DNA of 64,000 nucleotides from an uncultured Chlorobiota bacterium (lineage in GTDB: Bacteria; Bacteroidota; Bacteroidia; Bacteroidales; JAADGE01): positions 5,494-69,493 of the forward strand of contig CAMZKV010000037.1 of assembly GCA_947311445.1 (NCBI GenBank). Reading direction: 5' to 3'. Below the pieces are notes generated by a model. The model was not told where the DNA came from. It did not search any database and saw only the letters and a program-made list of their open reading frames with translations. The position numbers and the translations under genes are program-made. How positions within the stretch are numbered: position 1 is the stretch's first letter; each line of letters starts with the position of its first letter. Shown here piece by piece: positions 8,076-28,984 of this stretch.

Positions 8076-9218
8076 ATGGAAAAACTCAATTTTGATAATA
8101 TCCGTTCATATAGAGATGATGAAGTTAATGATAAATTAAGAAAACTTGTAAAAGATAAAGAGTTTATTTATATTCTGAGAAAAATTTTTACAGATGAAAG
8201 AATTGCAAATTTAAGTGAAGAGCTTAATGAAGTAAATTCGGTTTACGATTTTCAATCAAAATATATTTCATATTATGTAAAAAGTCTATTAGACTTGTCA
8301 ATTTCTGAACTTTCAATTTCGGGAATTGAGAAACTAAAAAAAAATAAATCATACCTTTTCATTTCTAATCATAGAGATATTATAATTGATTCGGCTCTAA
8401 TTAATGAAATTTTATTGTCAAATGGGTTCTCAACTTCCGAAAATGCAATAGGAAATAATCTTCTGATATACAAATGGATAGAAACTCTTGTCAGACTAAA
8501 CAAATCTTTTATAGTTAGACGAGATTTGGTTGGAAGAGAAATGCTACAAGCTTCAATTAAATTATCAGCATATATAAGAGATGCAATAACAAACAGAAAT
8601 ACATCAGTTTGGATAGCACAAAGAGAAGGAAGAACAAAAGATGGCAATGATGTAACAGAAGAAGCTTTACTAAAAATGTTAAACCTTAGTGGAACAAATA
8701 ATTTTGAGAAAGATTTCTCAGAACTTAATATTATCCCAATCAGTATTTCATACGAAACAGAACCTACCATAGAATCTAAAATTGCATCAACATACTCAAA
8801 TATAAAAGGTCTTAATAATGAAAAAACAGTTGATGACGATTTAACTGACATGGGAAGAGGTTTGTATAGTGCAAAAGGAAAAGTAACTGTTGTTTTTGGA
8901 GATGAAATTAATAATAATATTAAAAAACTTGACAAAATAGCAAACAGGAATGAAAAGATTAAACTTCTTTCAAAAATTATAGACAATAGTATTTATTCTA
9001 ATTTCAAATTAACAAAAAACAATTATATTGCTTTTGATATTCTTACAAACTCAAAAAAATGTTTAAAAGAAAATAAATATCAAAAAGCAGATGAAACTAA
9101 ACTTAGATTCCAATGTCAAAAAACAATTAGTACAATTGAAGGAGAAAAAGAATTATTAGAAAACATATTTTATAGGATTTATGCAAATCCTTTAATAAAT
9201 AAAATCCAAATCCCTTAA
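8076..9218 (+). CDS. PlsC-like glycerol/lysophospholipid acyltransferase
   Basis: NHRDIIID (HX4D), SFIVRR, WIAQREGRTKDG motifs. Confidence 0.85.
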   Translation: MEKLNFDNIRSYRDDEVNDKLRKLVKDKEFIYILRKIFTDERIANLSEELNEVNSVYDFQSKYISYYVKSLLDLSISELSISGIEKLKKNKSYLFISNHRDIIIDSALINEILLSNGFSTSENAIGNNLLIYKWIETLVRLNKSFIVRRDLVGREMLQASIKLSAYIRDAITNRNTSVWIAQREGRTKDGNDVTEEALLKMLNLSGTNNFEKDFSELNIIPISISYETEPTIESKIASTYSNIKGLNNEKTVDDDLTDMGRGLYSAKGKVTVVFGDEINNNIKKLDKIANRNEKIKLLSKIIDNSIYSNFKLTKNNYIAFDILTNSKKCLKENKYQKADETKLRFQCQKTISTIEGEKELLENIFYRIYANPLINKIQIP

Positions 9219-9355
9219 TAACAGTTATTTACTTTCAATTAAAAACCTAAATTATTTCTGTCTTTTTTTTGAGAAGCAGTATGAATTAGGGTTTTTTATT
9301 TTTTTTTATTATCTTGCACTCTAACTATTTTACATAACTAACAAAACAAACTACT

Positions 9356-9793
9356 ATGAAATATTTAAAACTGATAATCCCAGTTTTTTTACTTTGCTCA
9401 TTTTCAATAATAAGCTGCTTATCAGTTGATAAAGCTCAAATTACTGCCGATGAGTTTTTTGAAGCCCTTAATAATGAAAATGAAGAAAAAATGGAAGCCT
9501 TACTTGACCCTATATCTGTAATTGATGCAGGTATTAAAGATGATTTTTACAATGTCTTTAATCAACATAAACAAGGATTTGGAAAAGTAATATCTCATAA
9601 AAGATATGGATTTCACACAAGTACTAATGATGGAGTTACAACAGTTGCTCTAAAGTTCAAATGCGAAACAGAAAAAGGCTCACGATTATACGAAAGCCTA
9701 AAATTTGTAAAAAGAGGGAATAATTATAAAATTTATGAATATCAATACAATATTAGCCAGTTAGAAATTGACAGAGAAGACAATACAAATTAG
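9356..9793 (+). CDS. Hypothetical lipoprotein or exported protein (possibly NTF2-like fold)
   Basis: N-terminal hydrophobic segment with LLCS..ISC; helices then strands ending in L.FVK...YKI. Confidence 0.5.
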   Translation: MKYLKLIIPVFLLCSFSIISCLSVDKAQITADEFFEALNNENEEKMEALLDPISVIDAGIKDDFYNVFNQHKQGFGKVISHKRYGFHTSTNDGVTTVALKFKCETEKGSRLYESLKFVKRGNNYKIYEYQYNISQLEIDREDNTN

Positions 9794-9975
9794 AATTTTA
9801 TAAAAATAAAATCGTTATTGATGTTTTTAATTTTAAATCAAAGTGTGATAAAAAAAATGAGTTTGCAAACTTAAACCAGCTAGTCTTTTTCTATTAACCT
9901 TATTATAAAAAAATAAAATGGAAAATTTTAATATTATTAAGAAAAATCAACAATAACTAAAAAAATATTTAAATT

Positions 9976-10791
9976 ATGAAAAAACTATTTTCAATACTCG
10001 TATTAATCCTTTTTGTAAGTATTATTAATGCCCAAGAAGATTCAAAAAAAACAAATTACTTTTATGATATGAAGTTTGGAGAGCAGTATAATGTGTTTAT
10101 ATCTGCAAAAAACATTGTATCTAAACACAATTACTTAAAATTAGCATTAGAAATTCAAAATAAAACAGATGACTATATTTTATTTAAAGAAGACAAGTGT
10201 AAATTTGTAATTGATGAAAATTCATATTTTCCAAAGAAAAAAAAGAAAAATACTATAATAAAACCAAATAAGAAAAAGACAATAACTATTGCTTCCAAAA
10301 ATGCTACTAACTATTTGGTTGAAACATTTGATTTTCATCCGTCTGGAATATATATCTTTACTGAAAAAGGAGAAATTACTAAAACAGAACCTTTTCATCT
10401 TCCTCCGAATAAAAACCAAATTGAAGCAGGTTCTTTTAAAATTAATATGTTAAAACTTAAGAAGGAAACAAGTGAAACAGCTGTAAAATTCAAATTTACT
10501 TATACAGGAGATAAAGTTGCTGTAATTAATACTGCAAATTGCGTTTTGCGTACAAAAGATGGGAAAGAATGGGCAACAGTTAAGTCAAAATCAAAACCCT
10601 ATATTTTGCAAAAAAATGAAAGTAAAAGTTTTACTCTAATTTTTAAGATCCCAGGCAAAACAACAGATATGCAATTTGCTGAAATGGATATTTTATGGAA
10701 AAATACTTTTAGCGAATCAGATATAAAAGAACTTAATTTTGATATTCAAAGAACAAATATTGATGATGTAAAAACAAAAGAAAAGAATTAA
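9976..10791 (+). CDS. Secreted hypothetical protein with two beta-sandwich-like halves
   Basis: Signal peptide MKKLFSILVLILFVSIINA-Q; two similar segments (LEIQNKTDDYIL...IIKPNKKKTITI and FKFTYTGDKVAV...ILQKNESKSFTL). Confidence 0.55.
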   Translation: MKKLFSILVLILFVSIINAQEDSKKTNYFYDMKFGEQYNVFISAKNIVSKHNYLKLALEIQNKTDDYILFKEDKCKFVIDENSYFPKKKKKNTIIKPNKKKTITIASKNATNYLVETFDFHPSGIYIFTEKGEITKTEPFHLPPNKNQIEAGSFKINMLKLKKETSETAVKFKFTYTGDKVAVINTANCVLRTKDGKEWATVKSKSKPYILQKNESKSFTLIFKIPGKTTDMQFAEMDILWKNTFSESDIKELNFDIQRTNIDDVKTKEKN

Positions 10792-10885
10792 TAACTTTCT
10801 CAACAAGCAAAACCAAATAAAAAAGATATTAAATTTGTTTTCTATATATTAATATGACAATAAAAAACTCTTCTAAACTAAAAAT

Positions 10886-12577
10886 ATGTCAATATTAAAT
10901 AAAATTACAGAAGTATTAAAACATTTTCATAAAAATGAAGAATCGGAGATTAACCAAAAATATATGTTTCTAAATTTTTCTTTAATTTTCTTCAGTTTCT
11001 TTTCATTAATATTTTCAGTATTGCATTTTTTCTTTTCAGAAAGAATTACAAGCTATGTTTTATTTGTATTTTCATTTTTATCTTTTTTATTATTCTTTTA
11101 TTTTAAAAAGAAAATAGATTCTAATAAATATTCTACACTTTCAATAATTATTATATTTTCTTTCTTTGTTTATATTCTAATTAGTGGAGTAGGGAACAGC
11201 ACAGGATTAGTTTTTGGGCTTACATTTCCAGTAATTTTAGCGTTTTCTTTCAACATTAAAAAGGCAAATCTTTTTTCAATTTTATTCTTACTTATTACCA
11301 TAGTAGTTTTTTATGTCCCTTCAAGTTTTTGGGCAGACTATTCAACTGAATTTAAATTTAGATATTTAAGTGCATTTATCACAATTTTTATTTTTATTCA
11401 ATATTATTTAAAAATTAAACAACAAGATATTTATAAAAAGGAAAAACAAATTTTAGAATTGGAACAAAAAATTAGAAAACAAAGCGTTCTATTATCTAAT
11501 TTATCATACAAATTAAGAACTCCATTAAATAATATTTCCGGTTTTATAAATTTAAAAAGCAACGAATTTGAAGAAAGTGACGTGGAAGATGTTGAGCTTT
11601 CTGTTAGTAATTTAATAGCAATAATTAATTCAATATCTAGTGATTTTAATAGTAACACATTACAAAAAAGAGAAAAGAAAATACATTTTAAATTTAACTC
11701 AGCAATAAAAAAAACTGCTTCCTTATTTTATACCGATAAATACAGAAACTTAAAAATAAATTTGCAACTTTCAGACACTCATAACAAAATTGTTTTTGGA
11801 GAGCGAATTATTTTAATTCAAATTATATTATCTTCAATAGATTTTTTTTATAACAATAATAATAATAATGGCATTCTTAAAATCAAGATTATTTCTGAAG
11901 ATTTAAAGAGCTCAACAGGCGAAAAAATTAAAATTAAAATAATTAGCAATTCAAATTACAATTTTAATAAACAACTTGAAAATAATTCAACTATTATAAC
12001 ACCTGAAAAAAATAACAAAGAATTAACAACGCTAAAAGAGTTAGTAAATACATTCTCAGGTAAATTGTTAATAGAAACAGAACCATCTAAATCTTCTTTT
12101 ATTTTTGATTTAAATTTCAACACAAAACTTGAAAAGATAGTAAAAACAAGTACTTTAGCATTGATTAATGAAGACATACAAACAACTAATCCAAAAATAA
12201 AACTAGAAAATGCCAACATACTTTTAGTTGAAGATGATGTTGATAATAGTAAAATAATGATTTTAAATTTAAAATCCCATGTAAATAAAATAATTCTTGC
12301 AGAAAATGGGAAAGAAGCATTAGAAAAATTTGCTAGTACTAAAATTGACTTAATATTAATGGATGTTAGAATGCCCTTAATGGATGGATTTAAAACTACC
12401 GAAAAAATTAGAGAAGCCGAAGCTGGAATTGGACGAAAAATACCAATTATTGCAGTAACTGCTAATGCATCATCCGAAGTAAAGAAAAAATGTTTAGACT
12501 CGGGAATGACTACATATATGACAAAACCCACAAATTACAAACTTCTTCTAAAAAAAATGAAAAAACTACTAGACTAA
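10886..12577 (+). CDS. Membrane-anchored hybrid sensor with degenerate histidine-kinase core and intact receiver domain
   Basis: About 5 N-terminal TM segments; H-box reads SYKLRTPLNN; no recognisable N/G boxes; receiver has VEDD, LILMDVRMP, AVTA and TKP. Confidence 0.8.
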   Translation: MSILNKITEVLKHFHKNEESEINQKYMFLNFSLIFFSFFSLIFSVLHFFFSERITSYVLFVFSFLSFLLFFYFKKKIDSNKYSTLSIIIIFSFFVYILISGVGNSTGLVFGLTFPVILAFSFNIKKANLFSILFLLITIVVFYVPSSFWADYSTEFKFRYLSAFITIFIFIQYYLKIKQQDIYKKEKQILELEQKIRKQSVLLSNLSYKLRTPLNNISGFINLKSNEFEESDVEDVELSVSNLIAIINSISSDFNSNTLQKREKKIHFKFNSAIKKTASLFYTDKYRNLKINLQLSDTHNKIVFGERIILIQIILSSIDFFYNNNNNNGILKIKIISEDLKSSTGEKIKIKIISNSNYNFNKQLENNSTIITPEKNNKELTTLKELVNTFSGKLLIETEPSKSSFIFDLNFNTKLEKIVKTSTLALINEDIQTTNPKIKLENANILLVEDDVDNSKIMILNLKSHVNKIILAENGKEALEKFASTKIDLILMDVRMPLMDGFKTTEKIREAEAGIGRKIPIIAVTANASSEVKKKCLDSGMTTYMTKPTNYKLLLKKMKKLLD

Positions 12578-21818: not shown

Positions 21819-21864
21819 TTTCCCTGCTTCCTTCATTTGACATCAAATGAAGGAAGCAGGGAAA
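21819..21864. repeat. Near-perfect 46-nt palindrome between convergent genes (terminator or REP-like)
   Basis: tttccctgcttccttcatttga-ca-tcaaatgaaggaagcagggaaa: 22-bp perfect stem. Confidence 0.75.
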
Positions 21865-21917: not shown

Positions 21918-22319
21918 TTATTTTCTTATTTTAGAAACATCTTCTTCTTTTATTTCTTTATAATTATTCCCAAAAGATTTATTAATGTATGTTGCTAGTT
22001 TTGCAATTTCTTTATCTGACAATTCTTTTTTAAAAGAAGGCATTACTAGTCCTTTAGAACCATTTAAAATTATTGCAATGCTACATTCTTTTCCTTTTAA
22101 AGAAGGGAAAGAACCGTCAACCCCTTCTCCTTTTTCTTGATGACAAGCTAAACAATGTTTAGTATAAATTTCTTGTCCACTAAGACTTTTCACAGTAGTT
22201 TCTATATTTTTTGCAGTATTTCCCTTGTTATTTTCACAAGAAAAAAATGCAGATGAAATAAAAATTAAAAGAATTAAATAAAGTAACTTCATTTTGTTAT
22301 TTTTTAAATTTAAAACCAT
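21918..22319 (-). CDS. Monoheme cytochrome c lipoprotein
   Basis: Lipobox AFFSC, G..IY..HCLACHQ..G.G, distal MPSF methionine ligand. Confidence 0.85.
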   Translation of the reverse strand: MVLNLKNNKMKLLYLILLIFISSAFFSCENNKGNTAKNIETTVKSLSGQEIYTKHCLACHQEKGEGVDGSFPSLKGKECSIAIILNGSKGLVMPSFKKELSDKEIAKLATYINKSFGNNYKEIKEEDVSKIRK

Positions 22320-22390: not shown

Positions 22391-23143
22391 TTAGTGTTTC
22401 ATCTTGTTAATTAAACTGTTATGTCCTTTCTGTTTCATTTGTTGTTCAGTAGGAACTTTTAGTTTTTTATCCGGTGGACTAATAAACATAATTCCTAATC
22501 CCATTCCTCTTAAAATAAACAATATGCCAAGTATAACAATAGTTACAGGAATTAATTTTGCTAATTTAGTTCTTAATTTAGTGCTAATTTTATTTCCTAT
22601 TAAAGAAAGTGTAAGCATTATTGGAATTGTTCCTATTCCAAAAAGAAACATAAAACTTGTGCCATAAATTACACTTCCTGTGGCTATTGCTCCGGCTAAA
22701 GCTGCATAAACAGGACCACAAGGTAATAGTCCGTTTAATAATCCAATTACAAAAAGACTTGTATATGAACGTTTTCCAAAAAGCACAGCTAATCTTTTTC
22801 TTAAAGGACCAGTGTATTTGTATCCAAAACTTTCTACTGAGAATTTGCTTTTAAAAAAGAATGGGAATATAACGTATAATATCATAACAATTCCCATAAC
22901 AATTCCTACCCATTTTTGAAAACCTGCCATTGCAAAGCTTTGACCAAAAAAGCCAAAAATCATTCCCATAAGTGCATAAGTTATTGAACGACCTAAATTA
23001 TACAATATAGCACTTGAAACTTTTGAAAAGTTATTTGATTTTTTAAGAGGTAAAGAAATTGCAATAGGTCCGCACATTCCTATGCAATGAATTCCTGTTA
23101 CTAGCCCCAAGAGTAGGGCAGATCCAATTATTTGATAGTCCAT
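22391..23143 (-). CDS. TauE/SafE-like (DsbD_2) membrane protein of cbb3 clusters
   Basis: HCIGMCGP and GLLPCGPVY motifs; multiple TM helices; position in the cco cluster. Confidence 0.88.
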   Translation of the reverse strand: MDYQIIGSALLLGLVTGIHCIGMCGPIAISLPLKKSNNFSKVSSAILYNLGRSITYALMGMIFGFFGQSFAMAGFQKWVGIVMGIVMILYVIFPFFFKSKFSVESFGYKYTGPLRKRLAVLFGKRSYTSLFVIGLLNGLLPCGPVYAALAGAIATGSVIYGTSFMFLFGIGTIPIMLTLSLIGNKISTKLRTKLAKLIPVTIVILGILFILRGMGLGIMFISPPDKKLKVPTEQQMKQKGHNSLINKMKH

Positions 23144-23586
23144 TAAATTGAAAGTTTAAATTCTTGAAAATAATTAATGCTGTCCGAAGCCCAATCTATT
23201 TTAATATAATATCTTCCTTTTTGTATGTCTCCAATATTAATAATTTGTTTTCCTGAATTATCCGGTTTTATTGTAACAGTTTTGTCATGCCTATAACTTG
23301 TAACATAGTACAAAAGTATTTTACCTGAAATATTGTTACTTTTATCTTTTGGATAACTTATAATTATTTTATCATTTTCTTTTTTTAATGATATTTTTTC
23401 AGCAAGTTTATCAGCATTATTTATTTTTTCTAATTTGCTTGCATAAGCAATTTCTTCTGGAAAATAATCTTTTGATACTAAATTTATGTCTTGTGTAAGA
23501 CTAAATAAAATAAAGCTAACAAAAAAAGATACTCCTAAAATAATTGTTATTAATAGACCTGTGCCCCAAGTGAATTTTATTTTCAT
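23143..23586 (-). CDS. ccoH: FixH/CcoH family protein
   Basis: TWGTG..TM..LV.KDY..EE..Y motif; C-terminal KGRYYIKIDW. Confidence 0.85.
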   Translation of the reverse strand: MKIKFTWGTGLLITIILGVSFFVSFILFSLTQDINLVSKDYFPEEIAYASKLEKINNADKLAEKISLKKENDKIIISYPKDKSNNISGKILLYYVTSYRHDKTVTIKPDNSGKQIINIGDIQKGRYYIKIDWASDSINYFQEFKLSI

Positions 23587-23721: not shown

Positions 23722-25122
23722 TTAATGTATGTCAGGACCCACAAAATTTGTTTGAGTTTCTTCTAAAAGCTTATCTCCCGAATATATATTAAATTTCAAA
23801 ATTAAATTTTTTGTTTTAATTTTCTCTTTGGGTATATAAACAATCATTTTTGGCTGTGTTTTCTGTCCGCTTTCAACATGTAAGTTATCTCCAAAAAACT
23901 TGAGCTCTCCTTCAATATTTGTTAGTTCAATTCTTAAATCCATAGTATTATGAGTTTTGTTAAGAATTCTAACATTATATATATTGCTTATTACAGTGTC
24001 TCCTTGAACGTTGTACATAAAGTTTTTATCTCTAAGAATATTTGTTTCAATATCTGGTCTTGTAAATAATAAAATAGATAAGAAAATTAATATTATTCCT
24101 AAAACAACTGAGTATGCAATATTTCTAGGAGTGAGTTTTAGTTTTTGACCATTTTTTATTCCTTCCTCAGAAGCAAATTTAATAAGTCCTTTTGGTTTTC
24201 CAATCTTTGTCATAGTTGCATTGCAAGCATCTATACATGCTGTACAGTTAACACATTCGAGTTGAGTTCCGTTTCTTATATCAATTCCTGTTGGGCAAAC
24301 GTTTACACATTGTTTACAATCAATGCAATCTCCATATTTATTATCCTCTCCTTTTTTTGCCACACCTTTTGGTTCTCCTCTAAAATAATCATAAGAAACT
24401 ATTATGGAGTTAGAGTCCAAAAGAACTCCTTGTAATCTCCCGTAGGGGCACATAATAGTACAAACTTGTTCTCTAAACCATGCGTATAAAAAATAAAAAA
24501 CAGATGTAAAAACAAGTAATGCAATAAATCCTTTTGTGTTTTCAGGAAAAGGATGTTTTACAAAATCAATTACAGTTTCCACTCCAAGAATAAATGATAA
24601 TAGTGCTAAAACACTAACAAAAGAAACTAACCAAAATATTGTGTGTTTTAAGATTCTTTTAAAAATTTTAGAAGCATTCCATTCTTGGGCTTTTAATTTT
24701 TTTTGTTGTGTAGGGTTTCCATCAATAAGCCATTCAATTCTTCTGAAAACAAGTTCAAGAAAAACTGTTTGCGGACATGCCCAACCACAAAAAAGCCTTC
24801 CGTAAACAACTGTAAACAAGACAATAAACAGTATTGCTGAAAGCATCATAAGGTAGAAAAGAAATGAATCTTGTGGCCAAAATATAACTCCAAATATTAT
24901 AAATTTTCTTTCAATTACATTAAACAGCATTAAAGGCTCTCCATTTATTTTAATAAACGGAACAATAAATAAAAATGTTAAAAGAAAATATCCAAAAAGC
25001 TGTCTGTAATTATATAGTTTTCCTTTTGGCTTTTTTGCATGTACCCAAATTCTTTTGCCATCTTCATCAATTGTGGCAAGTTTATCTCTATACGTTACTT
25101 CTTTATTTTCATCGAGTTTCAT
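23722..25122 (-). CDS. ccoG: Cytochrome c oxidase accessory protein CcoG
   Basis: GRLFCGWACPQTVF, REQVC..MCPYGRLQ, CIDCKQCVNVCPTGIDIR.G.QLECVNCTACIDAC. Confidence 0.96.
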   Translation of the reverse strand: MKLDENKEVTYRDKLATIDEDGKRIWVHAKKPKGKLYNYRQLFGYFLLTFLFIVPFIKINGEPLMLFNVIERKFIIFGVIFWPQDSFLFYLMMLSAILFIVLFTVVYGRLFCGWACPQTVFLELVFRRIEWLIDGNPTQQKKLKAQEWNASKIFKRILKHTIFWLVSFVSVLALLSFILGVETVIDFVKHPFPENTKGFIALLVFTSVFYFLYAWFREQVCTIMCPYGRLQGVLLDSNSIIVSYDYFRGEPKGVAKKGEDNKYGDCIDCKQCVNVCPTGIDIRNGTQLECVNCTACIDACNATMTKIGKPKGLIKFASEEGIKNGQKLKLTPRNIAYSVVLGIILIFLSILLFTRPDIETNILRDKNFMYNVQGDTVISNIYNVRILNKTHNTMDLRIELTNIEGELKFFGDNLHVESGQKTQPKMIVYIPKEKIKTKNLILKFNIYSGDKLLEETQTNFVGPDIH

Positions 25123-25452: not shown

Positions 25453-25992
25453 TTATAACTTTTTCAGTAAGAAACTAGACACTTTAAGTATATCTTCATC
25501 TCCAAGAGATTTGAATGATGTCATGCCTTTTTCCGTGCCATTTTTAACTACACCAAAAACTTTGCTTATATCTTTTCCGTATATCCATTCATTATCTTTT
25601 AAGTTTGGTCCTATACCTCCTTGTCCTTCTGCTCCATGACAAGCAACACAAGATTTTTTGTAAATTTCAGCACCTCTTACTAAGTCTTCTTCTGCTGTTA
25701 AAATATTAATAGTTTCAGTATCCATTGCAGTTACTTTATATTTTTGAGCTGCTTCTTCAATTTCGTGTTGGTAATCAGCCTCTTGAAGTCTTCCCATATC
25801 AAACCAATGAAACCAAGCTAAATACCAAACTGCCCATATTACAGTAAAATAGAAGAGCCACATGAGCCATGGTGGTGGTGGATTGTCTAATTCTTTAATT
25901 CCATCATAATCATGGTCAATCATTAATTTTTTATCAAATTTTTCGTTATATTCTTTGTAAACCTCTTTTGGGTCAATATTTTTGTTTTCCAT
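25453..25992 (-). CDS. ccoP: cbb3-type cytochrome c oxidase subunit III (monoheme, short)
   Basis: DHDYDGIKELDNPPPPW N-terminal FixP motif; one CVACH heme site. Confidence 0.93.
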   Translation of the reverse strand: MENKNIDPKEVYKEYNEKFDKKLMIDHDYDGIKELDNPPPPWLMWLFYFTVIWAVWYLAWFHWFDMGRLQEADYQHEIEEAAQKYKVTAMDTETINILTAEEDLVRGAEIYKKSCVACHGAEGQGGIGPNLKDNEWIYGKDISKVFGVVKNGTEKGMTSFKSLGDEDILKVSSFLLKKL

Positions 25993-26019
25993 TTTTGTTT
26001 TTTTTTAATGAAGTTAATT

Positions 26020-26217
26020 CTAATTAGAATGATTATTGTCAGTATCAGTTCCGTCATTAAGAGGCATAGCTTCCCATTCCTCAACATCTTTTTTCTTAAA
26101 AGTTATTACCACATAAACAATAAATAAAAAGACTATTGTAAAAAGCACAACTGATATTCTAGGCCATAAAGTTGCCCAATCATACTCACTCAAAAATTTA
26201 AATTTTTCTCCTAACAT
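26020..26217 (-). CDS. ccoQ: cbb3-type oxidase subunit CcoQ/FixQ-like
   Basis: Single TM helix followed by MPLND, between ccoNO and ccoP. Confidence 0.8.
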   Translation of the reverse strand: MLGEKFKFLSEYDWATLWPRISVVLFTIVFLFIVYVVITFKKKDVEEWEAMPLNDGTDTDNNHSN

Positions 26218-26268
26218 AATTAATGAAATTAAAGTATCAAGGCAATTTTTTGCCTTGATACAAGTTAA

Positions 26269-28773
26269 TTATTTTATTTCTTCTCCTTCTGGCTCTTTCC
26301 CATTTTCAGGATTTGTACCAATAAGTGAAGTTGTATATGCAGTAAGGTTTGCAATTTCACTTTCTGTAAATTTCTTAAATGGGGGCATTATTCCAGCACC
26401 ATTTAAAATTACATTTTTAATGTCATCGTTTGATGCTCCATGTAATGTAAAATTATCTCCTAAGTTTGATCCCATACCTCCTTCTCCTTTTTGTCCGTGG
26501 CAAGCTGCACAATCATTTGCAAAAATAGTTGCACCTGCTTCTAAGTTTATTTCTCCTGAGTTTGTTTGTTCAACTTTAGGTTCATTCGCTTTCTTTTCAG
26601 CAATTTTTGCTAAGGAAATATCTTTTCCAAGTTTGTGCATATATGCAATCATTGCAATTATTTCTTTATCCCATGTAACATCTTTGCCCATGTCTTGAAG
26701 CTCTTTTGCAATTCCTTCTGCTTGTGTTTTATATGCTTTTTCAACCTTGTTATAATCAACATCCCCATTTTTATTTACAAAATTATAATCTTTTTCAGCA
26801 CCATCATATGGAACACCAAGAGTTATCATAACTTCTATTTTTCTTTTTAAAGTGCTGTTATCAATAGTGTTATCAAAAAACCAAGGATATGCAGGCATAA
26901 TTGATTTTTCAAATGTTTTTTGTGGGTTTAAAAAATGTTCGTAGTGCCAAATAGCAGGTCTGAACATTGTTCCTCCTCTGTATCCTGCACGAGCTAAATC
27001 CGGACCTGTTCGTTTTGAACCCCATTGGTATGGATGGTCATATACAAATTCTCCTTGTTTTGAATATTCTCCGTAACGTTCTGTTTCAGAACGGAAAGGA
27101 CGAACAACTTGCGAGTGGCAAGTATAACATCCTTCTCTAACATAAATATCTCGTCCTTGTAATTCAAGAGGTGTGTATGGTTTTACTGCTTCAATTGTAG
27201 GAATATTTGATTTTACAGTTATCATAGGAATAATCTCAACTAAACCTCCAATAATAATTGCTATTAAAATCCAAACTGTAAAATGTACTGCTTTTCTTTC
27301 TACCCATCTGTGAGGAGTTTCTCCCGCTAACCTTGCTTTAGCAACTTTTTCTCTTGGAGCAGCATGAGCTTCTTCGTTATTAATAATATGACCTGATTTT
27401 ACTGTTTTAACAATATTGAATATCATCATAACAGCTCCGCCAAAATAAAACAGACCACCTAAAGTACGAGTAACATACATTGGCATAATTTGAGTTACTG
27501 TATCTAAGAAATCAGGATATGCTAAGAAACCTGTATCTGTAAACTCTTTCCACATTAAAGTTTGTGTAAATGCTGCCCAGTATAATGGTACTGAATATAA
27601 TAACATACCAAATGTTCCAATCCAGAAGTGCATGTTTGCAGATTTTTCTGAATGTAGTTTTGTATTAAATAGTCTTGGAATTAACCAATATAACATACCA
27701 AAGGTTAAGAAACCGTTCCAGCCCATTCCTCCAATATGAACGTGAGCAATTGTCCAGTCTGTAAAATGACTTAATGCATTAACTGTTTTAAGTGATAACA
27801 TTGGACCTTCAAAAGTTGACATCCCATAAGCAGTAACACCAACAACAAAGAATTTAAGAATTGCACTGTCTCTTACTCTGTCCCATGCACCTCTCAATGT
27901 GAGAAGTCCGTTCATCATACCACCCCAAGATGGAGCAAGTAGCATGATTGAGAAAACAACTCCAAGAGTTTGTGCCCAATCCGGTAATGCTTGATATAAT
28001 AAATGGTGAGGTCCTGCCCACATGTATATAAAAATTAATGACCAAAAGTGAACAATAGAAAGTCTGTATGAATAAACAGGACGATTTGCAGCTTTTGGCA
28101 AGAAATAATACATTATGCCTAAGAATGGTGTTGTTAAGAAAAATGCAACAGCATTATGTCCATACCACCATTGAACAACAGCATCTTGTACACCTGCATA
28201 AACAGTGTAGCTTTTAAAGAAACTTACAGGTATTTCAATTGAGTTACCAATGTGCAGTACTGCAACTGCTACAAAACTTGCTAAGAAAAACCAAATAGCA
28301 ACATAAATGTGTTGTACTCTTCTTTTTATGAGAGTTCCAATCATATTCCATCCGAATGCAACCCAAACAACAGCAATTAAGATGTCAATAGGCCATTCTA
28401 GTTCAGCATATTCTTTACTAGTTGTGAAACCAGCTAAAAGTGTTATAGCAGCTAAAAGAATAATTGTTTGCCAACCCCAAAAGTTAAGTTTACTTAGAAA
28501 GTCGCTAAACATTCTTGCTTTTAAAAGACGTTGCATAGAATAATATGCACCTGTAAAAATGGCATTACCTGTAAATGCAAAAATAATTGCATTTGTGTGA
28601 ACAGGACGAACTCTACCAAAAGTGGTAAAGGACAAACCAAAGTTCAAAGATGGAAATGCAATCTGTGCTGCGGCTAACAAACCGACCAGCATACCTACAA
28701 TTCCCCAAAAAAGAGTTGCATAAGCAAATAGCTTCACAATCTTATTGTCATAGTAGAATTTTTCTTGTGTCAT
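26269..28773 (-). CDS. ccoN: cbb3-type oxidase fused CcoN-CcoO with an additional C-terminal cytochrome c domain
   Basis: FGRVRPVHTN, WWYGHNAV, WAGPHHL, WTIAHVH (CcoN); EGCYTCHSQ, WGSKRTGPDL (CcoO); extra CAACH domain at 26497-26511. Confidence 0.96.
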   Translation of the reverse strand: MTQEKFYYDNKIVKLFAYATLFWGIVGMLVGLLAAAQIAFPSLNFGLSFTTFGRVRPVHTNAIIFAFTGNAIFTGAYYSMQRLLKARMFSDFLSKLNFWGWQTIILLAAITLLAGFTTSKEYAELEWPIDILIAVVWVAFGWNMIGTLIKRRVQHIYVAIWFFLASFVAVAVLHIGNSIEIPVSFFKSYTVYAGVQDAVVQWWYGHNAVAFFLTTPFLGIMYYFLPKAANRPVYSYRLSIVHFWSLIFIYMWAGPHHLLYQALPDWAQTLGVVFSIMLLAPSWGGMMNGLLTLRGAWDRVRDSAILKFFVVGVTAYGMSTFEGPMLSLKTVNALSHFTDWTIAHVHIGGMGWNGFLTFGMLYWLIPRLFNTKLHSEKSANMHFWIGTFGMLLYSVPLYWAAFTQTLMWKEFTDTGFLAYPDFLDTVTQIMPMYVTRTLGGLFYFGGAVMMIFNIVKTVKSGHIINNEEAHAAPREKVAKARLAGETPHRWVERKAVHFTVWILIAIIIGGLVEIIPMITVKSNIPTIEAVKPYTPLELQGRDIYVREGCYTCHSQVVRPFRSETERYGEYSKQGEFVYDHPYQWGSKRTGPDLARAGYRGGTMFRPAIWHYEHFLNPQKTFEKSIMPAYPWFFDNTIDNSTLKRKIEVMITLGVPYDGAEKDYNFVNKNGDVDYNKVEKAYKTQAEGIAKELQDMGKDVTWDKEIIAMIAYMHKLGKDISLAKIAEKKANEPKVEQTNSGEINLEAGATIFANDCAACHGQKGEGGMGSNLGDNFTLHGASNDDIKNVILNGAGIMPPFKKFTESEIANLTAYTTSLIGTNPENGKEPEGEEIK

Positions 28774-28807: not shown

Positions 28808-28984
28808 TTAATTTTTGTTGTTATCTTTTTTCTGTTCATCAATTTCAATATCGTCAAATAAAATTCTCATAGCCGGAGTTTCATTATCATCAAACTGACC
28901 ATTTTTTACTGACCAAATATATAATGTTAAAAAAATTAATGCAACTATTAAGCTGAGACCTATAAGAATAAATATTACAATCAT
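28808..28984 (-). CDS. ccoS: cbb3-type oxidase assembly protein CcoS (58 aa, absent from the ORF track)
   Basis: Manual translation MIVIFILIGLSLIVALIFLTLYIWSVKNGQFDDNETPAMRILFDDIEIDEQKKDNNKN; W...GQFDD..PA.RIL.DD is the CcoS signature. Confidence 0.93.
   Translation of the reverse strand: MIVIFILIGLSLIVALIFLTLYIWSVKNGQFDDNETPAMRILFDDIEIDEQKKDNNKN

Follow-up and report, generated by a model that had tools for sequence, protein, structure and literature searches.

cbb3-type cytochrome c oxidases set the lower O2 limit of bacterial respiration, and their electron-entry side, formed by CcoO and CcoP, varies by lineage and decides which donors can be used. A cco cluster from an uncultured Chlorobiota bacterium (GTDB lineage Bacteroidota; Bacteroidia; Bacteroidales; JAADGE01) raises the question of how this side can be rearranged. 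In the 64,000-nt stretch of DNA analyzed here, which we call the window (assembly GCA_947311445.1, contig CAMZKV010000037.1, positions 5,494 to 69,493 of the forward strand), the reading frame of a fused CcoN-CcoO protein continues past the end of CcoO into a further cytochrome c domain. Is this extension a genuine part of the oxidase, where did it come from, and what might it do there?

A third domain at the end of a CcoN-CcoO fusion

The ORF list of the window gives the gene as one uninterrupted open reading frame (ORF) on the minus strand, 26269..28773, which encodes 834 amino acids and ends in a stop codon. Past the string IAYMHKLGKDI (residues 709–719) the frame runs on for 115 residues with zero stops. 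The initial annotation had read this ORF as a CcoN-CcoO fusion with a third haem c domain; its coordinates and quoted strings are correct. The gene divides as follows.

26269..28773, minus strand: whole fused gene, ccoN-ccoO-cytochrome c (single ORF, NF011053 match, AlphaFold2 model)
27358..28773, minus strand: CcoN part, residues 1–472, the catalytic subunit with haem b and haem b3-CuB (TIGR00780, ligands, Foldseek)
26608..27312, minus strand: CcoO part, residues 488–722, transmembrane (TM) anchor and monohaem c with CYTCH at 549–553 (PF02433, TIGR00781)
26545..26607, minus strand: flexible polar linker, about residues 723–743 (model confidence, linker comparison)
26320..26544, minus strand: extra class I cytochrome c domain, residues 744–818 (PF13442, PDB matches, alignment, AlphaFold2)
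26497–26511, minus strand: CAACH of the extra domain, residues 755–759
26377–26394, minus strand: GIMPPF with the presumed axial Met796
26272..26319, minus strand: C-terminal cap motif GTNPENGKEPEGEEIK, residues 819–834 (motif survey, AlphaFold2)

Pfam places COX1 on residues 11–441 (4e-116), FixO on residues 488–719 (1e-87) and Cytochrome_CBB3 (PF13442) on residues 744–813 (~6e-15; 55.7 bits against a cut-off of 27). With all three domains in a single ORF, the proposed third haem c domain is borne out. The model for fused CcoNO, NF011053, matches at 1209 bits (cut-off 1080) but stops at residue 730 (residues 1–730 align to model positions 3–714 of 716), leaving the tail uncovered. The two halves also pass the equivalog models on their own: TIGR00780 for CcoN scores 649.8 bits, above 583.15, and TIGR00781 for CcoO 227.2 bits against 200.65, with PF02433 at 293 bits (1.2e-87).

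The catalytic machinery is in place. CcoN residues H59, H206, Y250, H256, H257, E322, H344, and H346 are invariant in an alignment of 54 sequences; we take these positions to be those of the Pseudomonas stutzeri enzyme offset by one, comprising the residues that bind haem b, haem b3 and CuB along with the cross-linked Tyr and the active-site Glu. In CcoO, C549, C552, H553, and M626-P627 are invariant. Foldseek superposes the CcoN part on 9g6b_A, 8smr_E, and 3mk7_A with target-normalized TM scores of 0.93–0.95 and root-mean-square deviations of 1.6–2.0 Å, at 54–57% identity to the Pseudomonas CcoN chains. Judged by its ligands, equivalog scores and CcoN fold, the oxidase part is fully intact.

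The AlphaFold2 model of the full 834-residue protein has a predicted local distance difference test score (pLDDT) of 76 and a predicted TM score of 0.75. Residues 719–739, at the linker, fall below a pLDDT of 50, and among relatives the linker is 21–29 residues long and variable in sequence. The extra domain has neither a signal peptide nor a membrane anchor of its own, and FixP_N is absent from the tail. The C-terminus of CcoO lies in the periplasm; exported as an extension of CcoO, the extra domain is therefore periplasmic as well. Modeled alone, the tail reaches a pLDDT of 89 and shows three main helices in a class I cytochrome c fold, which Foldseek matches to cytochromes cL and c6 with probability 1.0. 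The cap motif (pLDDT ~94) is predicted to fold back onto the domain; a beta-bridge, read from the DSSP string and not a measured contact, may pair residues 831–832 with residues 775–776 of a CcoP-specific loop.

No stop interrupts the tail in any cbb3-bearing relative found in the genus and family, nor in two further families of the order. In total, 29 genomes from at least 14 genera (the long forms of the order sample described below plus added family members) share this open frame, among them the isolate Maribellus sp. CM-23 and a genome of 5.1 Mb in one contig. Contigs from two sequencing runs are identical across 26000–26940, and a contig of a ~92%-identical relative from a different study covers 26278–27027 without gaps. 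A stop between CcoO and the extra domain, to which the initial annotation had looked as evidence against a fusion, is absent from the assembled contigs that cross the junction. That a lost stop codon or a frameshift in sequencing or assembly merged ccoNO with a separate gene can thus be dismissed: nothing beyond the origin of the window in a metagenome-assembled genome (MAG) speaks for it, and 29 open frames, the agreement of independent runs over the junction, and a domain that, encoded on its own, would have no way into the periplasm speak against it. CcoN, CcoO and a cytochrome c domain are genuinely fused in one ORF, and this establishes the architecture.

The extra domain is a relative of CcoP

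The tail aligns to the window's 179-residue CcoP with 34% identity over 76 residues and a single gap (BLASTP, E = 5e-14). Searched against PDB sequences, its six best matches are CcoP chains (3mk7_C, E = 4.5e-14), and both haem domains of P. stutzeri CcoP match it. In an alignment of 53 sequences, 25 of them CcoP domains, no gap separates the tails from the Bacteroidota CcoP haem domains between the helix that precedes CxxCH and the C-terminus, a stretch including a GxGPNLxDxxWxxG loop and the ending G(T/S)NPxNxKxP(Q/E)G; genus g1 has NFTLHG in the loop, with another residue in place of the Trp. The motif-for-motif correspondence to the CcoP haem domain noted at the outset is thus confirmed.

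The last residues of the tail are equally telling. Bacteroidota CcoP characteristically terminates in the GTNPENGKEPEGE motif: 79 of 95 short-form loci match a loose pattern of it, the remaining 16 carry, by eye, mostly close variants, and the motif caps CcoP in nearly all Bacteroidota and Ignavibacteriota loci examined. The window's own CcoP ends in FLLKKL without the cap motif (25453–25470), so the initial annotation was right both that the ending is typical of Bacteroidota CcoP and that the 179-residue protein lacks it. At locus L001 the tail and CcoP have even the upstream segment LTDEASLAxG in common, and the duplicated piece was therefore the 3' part of ccoP.

A phylogeny of the extra domain against CcoP domains, which the initial annotation had proposed as a check, sets the tails inside the Bacteroidota CcoP domains. 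In maximum-likelihood (ML) trees of the haem domain the two form one clade (support 99/97 and 96) that leaves out domains 1 and 2 of Pseudomonas and Rhodobacter CcoP. This placement argues for a duplication inside Bacteroidota as opposed to an inherited second domain of an ancestral dihaem CcoP. By sequence comparison, then, the extra domain is a paralogue of the haem domain of Bacteroidota monohaem CcoP, C-terminal motif included. The CcoP equivalog model TIGR00782 scores below its cut-off on the tail (50.2 bits against 179.95), as it does on the window's own monohaem CcoP (84.2 against 179.95).

Derivation from some other cytochrome c, such as the 133-residue lipoprotein cytochrome of the same operon, is very improbable. 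Its BLASTP match to the tail (37% identity, E = 2e-12) comes near that of CcoP, and Foldseek favors generic class I cytochromes for the tail. Yet aligning the 133-residue protein takes 11 gaps, it lacks the GxGPNLxDxxWxxG loop that the tail and CcoP have in common along with the ending, gapless throughout, and in the tree it is a long branch of 4.9 substitutions and not a sister group. The LTDEASLAxG segment of L001 likewise ties the tail to CcoP.

Distribution, gain and loss

How common is the fusion? The 80 best genome loci for the fused protein were inspected for a second CxxCH. Such a motif occurs in the ORF of only two, one from a 'Sphingobacteriia' MAG and one from Maribellus sp. CM-23; the remaining 78 encode ordinary CcoNO of 707–775 residues. 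Among 401 genomes drawn from the whole phylum, 257 of which have cbb3, none of the ~150 matches listed except that of the window reaches into the tail. A second set of 401 genomes was sampled evenly from the window's order, and the long form was defined as a match through the tail without stops. Here cbb3 is present in 59 genomes and the long form (813–857 residues) in 17 of these, from at least 12 families. Distribution was taken from these genome scans. A search with residues 650–834 returned mostly multi-domain multihaem cytochromes among its best 150 matches and is uninformative on distribution, and a word-based homologue search with the tail only, which found two fusion clusters, under-reports the family. 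A homologue search with CcoO plus tail as the query found mostly fusion fragments on short contigs and one split form (P0185/L139).

The same set of Pfam domains occurs in many database proteins, which their sources name only 'cytochrome-c oxidase, cbb3-type subunit I', 'subunit II' or 'subunit I/II'. Within its own lineage the fusion is not unusual; it is common but uncharacterized.

Tail sequences diverge widely, and the haem-binding residues are kept: identity to the window drops to about 21–35% in other families, yet over 53 sequences the two Cys and the His never vary and at least 90% keep the axial Met. CcoP has exactly one CxxCH in all loci examined, long-form and short-form, as expected from the initial statement that Bacteroidota typically combine a fused CcoNO with a monohaem CcoP. 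By sequence, long-form enzymes therefore have three c-haems and ordinary Bacteroidota enzymes two.

We built a tree of the CcoNO core from 720 columns of CcoN-CcoO, leaving the tail out. All 29 long forms fall into one 40-row clade (Shimodaira-Hasegawa-like approximate likelihood ratio test, 98), which also holds eleven nested short forms. At least eight changes of state are needed on this tree, six of them forced by well-supported branches, and long and short forms stand side by side in families f23, f26, f32, and f147 and in genus g154. The haem-domain tree (103 columns) asks for three to six changes, only one of which is forced by well-supported branches, and monophyly of all tails is compatible with the approximately unbiased test (p = 0.30). 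A single gain of the domain followed by several losses is the most economical history, because a stop codon can remove the domain far more easily than it could be regained.

The cap motif adds a pattern of its own. In long-form genomes it is present in both the tail and CcoP in 10 cases, in CcoP only in 10, in the tail only in 10, and lacking from both in none; one further long-form locus had no readable CcoP in this count. All genomes with the motif in the tail only belong to genus g1 (loci L081–L122), and CcoP there ends in FLLKKL or similar. The pattern, which few independent events underlie, suggests that a complex lacking any motif-bearing domain would not do, and that the tail can provide one in place of CcoP.

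Possible function of the third haem c

The sequences show the architecture, origin and conservation of the domain and its intact ligands; we infer how the haem is attached, where the domain sits in the complex and in which direction electrons move. An ancestor of one Bacteroidales-type clade would have duplicated the 3' part of ccoP (the segment before the domain, the haem domain and the cap motif) and attached it behind ccoNO, with ~22 disordered linker residues in between. Carried to the periplasm as part of CcoO, the domain would bind haem covalently at CAACH, and His759 and Met796 would serve as the axial ligands. It could then accept electrons from membrane-bound cytochromes c, either the 133-residue lipoprotein cytochrome or the 294-residue cytochrome of the NrfC-NrfD module described below, and the tail haem would hand them to the haem of CcoP and/or CcoO, from which they would reach haem b and the b3-CuB site.

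We put the probability at about 0.7 that the protein is a working cbb3 core with CcoN, CcoO and a CcoP-derived third domain in one polypeptide, in which the tail provides an added electron-entry or relay haem. This role is favored because the tail duplicates the entry domain that the oxidase already has, because it restores the three-c-haem count of proteobacterial enzymes, and because the motif pattern suggests that the tail can replace CcoP. A three-haem-c entry chain with a different subunit layout had been proposed from the start; the three c-haems on two polypeptides stand, and the entry role is an interpretation.

Several points weigh against an entry or relay haem of CcoP origin. Foldseek puts cytochromes cL and c6 above CcoP chains, and the fold is not specific to CcoP. 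Poor resolution of the haem-domain tree leaves room for several independent duplications. The nested short forms (8 to 11 rows) point to repeated loss of a dispensable domain, which is therefore helpful at most, not essential. Ordinary Bacteroidota cbb3 enzymes function with only two c-haems. The placement of the tail domain is a prediction, and a single-chain AlphaFold2 model gives no docking position. In the only characterized case of an extra haem domain, that of Neisseria CcoP, the domain leads electrons away from the oxidase (PMC2924362).

This last case suggests an exit branch, in which the tail haem would pass electrons from the CcoP or CcoO haems, or from a shared donor, to other periplasmic enzymes of a microaerophilic or anaerobic host, such as a dihaem cytochrome c peroxidase (CCP), an octahaem cytochrome or a Nap system. 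Neisseria gonorrhoeae and commensal Neisseria have a tri-haem CcoP whose third, monohaem domain was added on a low-complexity linker by modular gene fusion; it comes from cytochrome c5 and supports nitrite reduction by NirK, and N. meningitidis has lost it through a stop codon (Aspholm et al., 2010; PMC2924362). The flexible linker, the modular gain and the repeated loss all recur here, and the window's genome encodes CCP, NapB and an octahaem cytochrome, each of which needs a c-type donor. We nevertheless consider an exit branch unlikely. No reductase gene is linked to the fusion within the window, the domain was copied from the oxidase's own CcoP and not from a soluble carrier like the c5 of Neisseria, and the retention of the cap motif suggests substitution for CcoP. 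Clade II NosZ is ruled out as a Neisseria-like exit partner, since it occurs in 0 of 29 long-form genomes; NirK lay outside that search.

Still less probable is a leftover, that is, a duplicated domain tolerated with little benefit and kept mostly by descent. The number of gains and losses in one clade, at least six to eight, would fit this explanation, as would the co-occurrence of both forms in the four families and one genus named above. A leftover would hardly have preserved CxxCH without exception, and the axial Met at a level of at least 90%, over 29 genomes while the rest of the tail drifted to ~21–35% identity. The tail is also free of stop codons and frameshifts, and in genus g1 it keeps the C-terminal motif after its loss from CcoP. 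An added entry or relay haem remains the explanation that we prefer.

The surrounding cco cluster

The cluster has the standard Bacteroidota order: ccoS, the fusion, an ORF in the CcoQ position, ccoP, ccoG, ccoH, a DsbD_2 protein and the 133-residue cytochrome c. The features other than the fusion are these.

28808..28984, minus strand: ccoS, cbb3 maturation protein, first gene (PF03597 FixS, 5.6e-21; TIGR00847, 53 bits against 28)
26234..26261, minus strand: 12-bp GC-containing hairpin with a T-run, 8 nt past the fusion stop (pattern scan only)
26020..26217, minus strand: 65-residue ORF with a single TM segment, CcoQ position (assigned by position and hydrophobic segment only)
25453..25992, minus strand: ccoP, 179 residues, monohaem (PF14715 FixP_N, 2.3e-18; PF13442, 7.5e-13; one CxxCH)
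23722..25122, minus strand: ccoG (Fer4_18 and FixG_C)
23143..23586, minus strand: ccoH (PF05751 FixH, 2.8e-13)
22391..23143, minus strand: membrane protein of the DsbD_2 family (PF13386, 1.7e-51)
21918..22319, minus strand: 133-residue lipoprotein-type monohaem cytochrome c, last gene (PF13442, 3.1e-13; lipobox-like N-terminus)
21820–21863, minus strand: perfect 20-bp terminator hairpin closing the cluster (terminator scan)

The hairpin between ccoNO-c and ccoQ/P is a possible attenuator or mRNA stabilizer within the operon. The 65-residue ORF has no significant family match in Pfam or NCBIfam; at L139 a FixQ occupies the same position. The 133-residue cytochrome c is a likely dedicated electron donor.

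Metatranscriptome contigs of run X7, 90–99% identical to the window, cover 26030–26199, 26691–27000, and 27049–27400; the tail lies outside this coverage. A close relative thus appears to transcribe the cluster, with the CcoQ-like ORF and the CcoO region covered.

Missing complex III and an NrfC-NrfD module

The genome of the window is 94% complete, has a GC content of 28.8% and comes from an epibiont metagenome. A genome search found neither ActD (PF11821) of alternative complex III (ACIII) nor cytochrome b. ActD scores above its cut-off in 2 of 29 long-form genomes vs 21 of 42 short-form ones, and cytochrome b (PF00033) is absent from or weakly matched in most long-form genomes. The raw association between tail and ActD is strong (Fisher p = 1e-4 by genome, 0.012 by genus), but most short forms that branch within the long-form clade lack ActD too. 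The link of the tail to the absence of ACIII disappears with phylogenetically independent pairs (median p = 0.5): the absence of ActD belongs to the CcoNO clade, not to the tail.

A three-gene module of the same genome lies outside the window.

Contig C103, 45110–48384, reverse-complement coordinates: NrfC-NrfD-cytochrome c module (also at L139:1–2398)

It encodes an NrfC-like 4Fe-4S protein with a twin-arginine translocation (Tat) signal (319 residues), a membrane protein of the NrfD family (451 residues) and a membrane-anchored PF13442 monohaem cytochrome c (294 residues). At L139 the module stands directly upstream of ccoS-ccoN-ccoO-c. The 294-residue cytochrome has a full-length homologue in 45 of 48 ActD-negative vs 5 of 23 ActD-positive genomes with cbb3 in the order, and this homologue often adjoins the cco cluster. 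The module is a candidate minimal quinol:cytochrome c oxidoreductase replacing ACIII. A bolder proposal, which we advance only tentatively and regard as doubtful, is that the module oxidizes menaquinol without a canonical complex III and that the CcoO-tethered domain is its dedicated docking and acceptor site, giving an undescribed, self-contained quinol-to-oxygen chain of microaerophilic or anaerobic Bacteroidota, possibly as a supercomplex.

Other cytochrome genes were seen during these searches. Contig C43 of the window's genome (reverse-complement 8882–11305) encodes an 807-residue cytochrome with 12 CxxCH, MtrC/MtrF-like domains and a C-terminal TM helix. It stands alone: named by eye from their sequence, its neighbors are housekeeping genes without a quinol dehydrogenase, namely a dihydrolipoyl dehydrogenase-like gene and a 1178-residue ORF that reads as a pyruvate:ferredoxin oxidoreductase. 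At G021:C123:10187–10744, a strong cytochrome b match (228 bits) is broken by eight TGA codons; read with TGA as Trp, this DNA looks like a mitochondrial or code-4 contaminant binned into the MAG. Three long-form genomes have ORFs of 913–914 residues with a weak cytochrome b-like segment of 45–53 bits (G144:C89, G263:C4, G388:C1).

Implications

A clade of mostly uncultured, low-GC Bacteroidales-type bacteria, largely without ACIII and bc1, appears to have rebuilt a three-haem entry side by copying the haem domain of CcoP onto CcoO. This is no new kind of enzyme, since the chemistry and every domain are already known. Because databases label such proteins only as cbb3-type 'subunit I' or 'I/II', haem and subunit counts taken from genomes, and donors deduced from them, are incomplete. 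The NrfCD-cytochrome c module may account for how a cytochrome c oxidase is fed in such organisms. Long and short forms side by side, even within one genus, offer a natural series for asking what a third c-haem adds.

Comparison with known systems

The CcoNO-c fusion is a real, lineage-wide variant of a well-known enzyme and apparently undescribed. We found no description of a monohaem CcoP, a dihaem CcoO or a CcoNO-c fusion in the full-text literature, where an earlier mention in Ducluzeau et al., 2008 is possible. The suggestion that this architecture is new therefore holds in part: no paper was found, but the form is common in the order (17/59) and NCBIfam already curates a family, NF011054, for its CcoO-c half.

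Closest are the ordinary Bacteroidota CcoNO proteins (NF011053/PRK14485), which have the same operon order and a monohaem CcoP; the fusion is 61–68% identical to CcoNO of 707–775 residues. It differs from them by 104–115 extra C-terminal residues that add a second CxxCH. NF011054 (PRK14486), named 'putative bifunctional cbb3-type cytochrome c oxidase subunit II/cytochrome c', likewise has CcoO followed by cytochrome c, and its positions 5–289 of 294 align to residues 491–816 of the fusion. The fusion is not a member, with 240 bits against a cut-off of 447; NF011054 describes a stand-alone CcoO-c of ~294 residues without CcoN. The nearest look-alike of NF011054 in this lineage is the split form at L139:2608–5071, on a 646-kb contig, where a separate ccoN (468 residues) and ccoO-c (356 residues) overlap by 14 nt. 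This arrangement would be either a split form of the same architecture or an assembly frameshift.

The dihaem CcoP of Proteobacteria (TIGR00782; P. stutzeri 3MK7/5DJQ chain C) provides the best structure matches to the tail, and its complex also has three c-haems. Unlike it, the extra domain sits on CcoO, lacks FixP_N, and is a recent duplicate of the Bacteroidota CcoP domain, not orthologous to domain 1 or domain 2. Neisseria tri-haem CcoP resembles the fusion in having an extra haem domain tethered to a cbb3 subunit, gained by fusion and later lost. Here the domain is on CcoO and derives from CcoP itself, which makes the Neisseria protein an analogue and the fusion not a member of its group. 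Finally, caa3-type oxidases (Thermus 2YEV) and tethered cytochromes, natural or engineered (cytochrome cy and the CcoP-cy fusion 6XKX), also tie a cytochrome c domain covalently to an oxidase; they differ from the CcoNO-c fusion in the oxidase family, the subunit that carries the domain and the origin of the domain.

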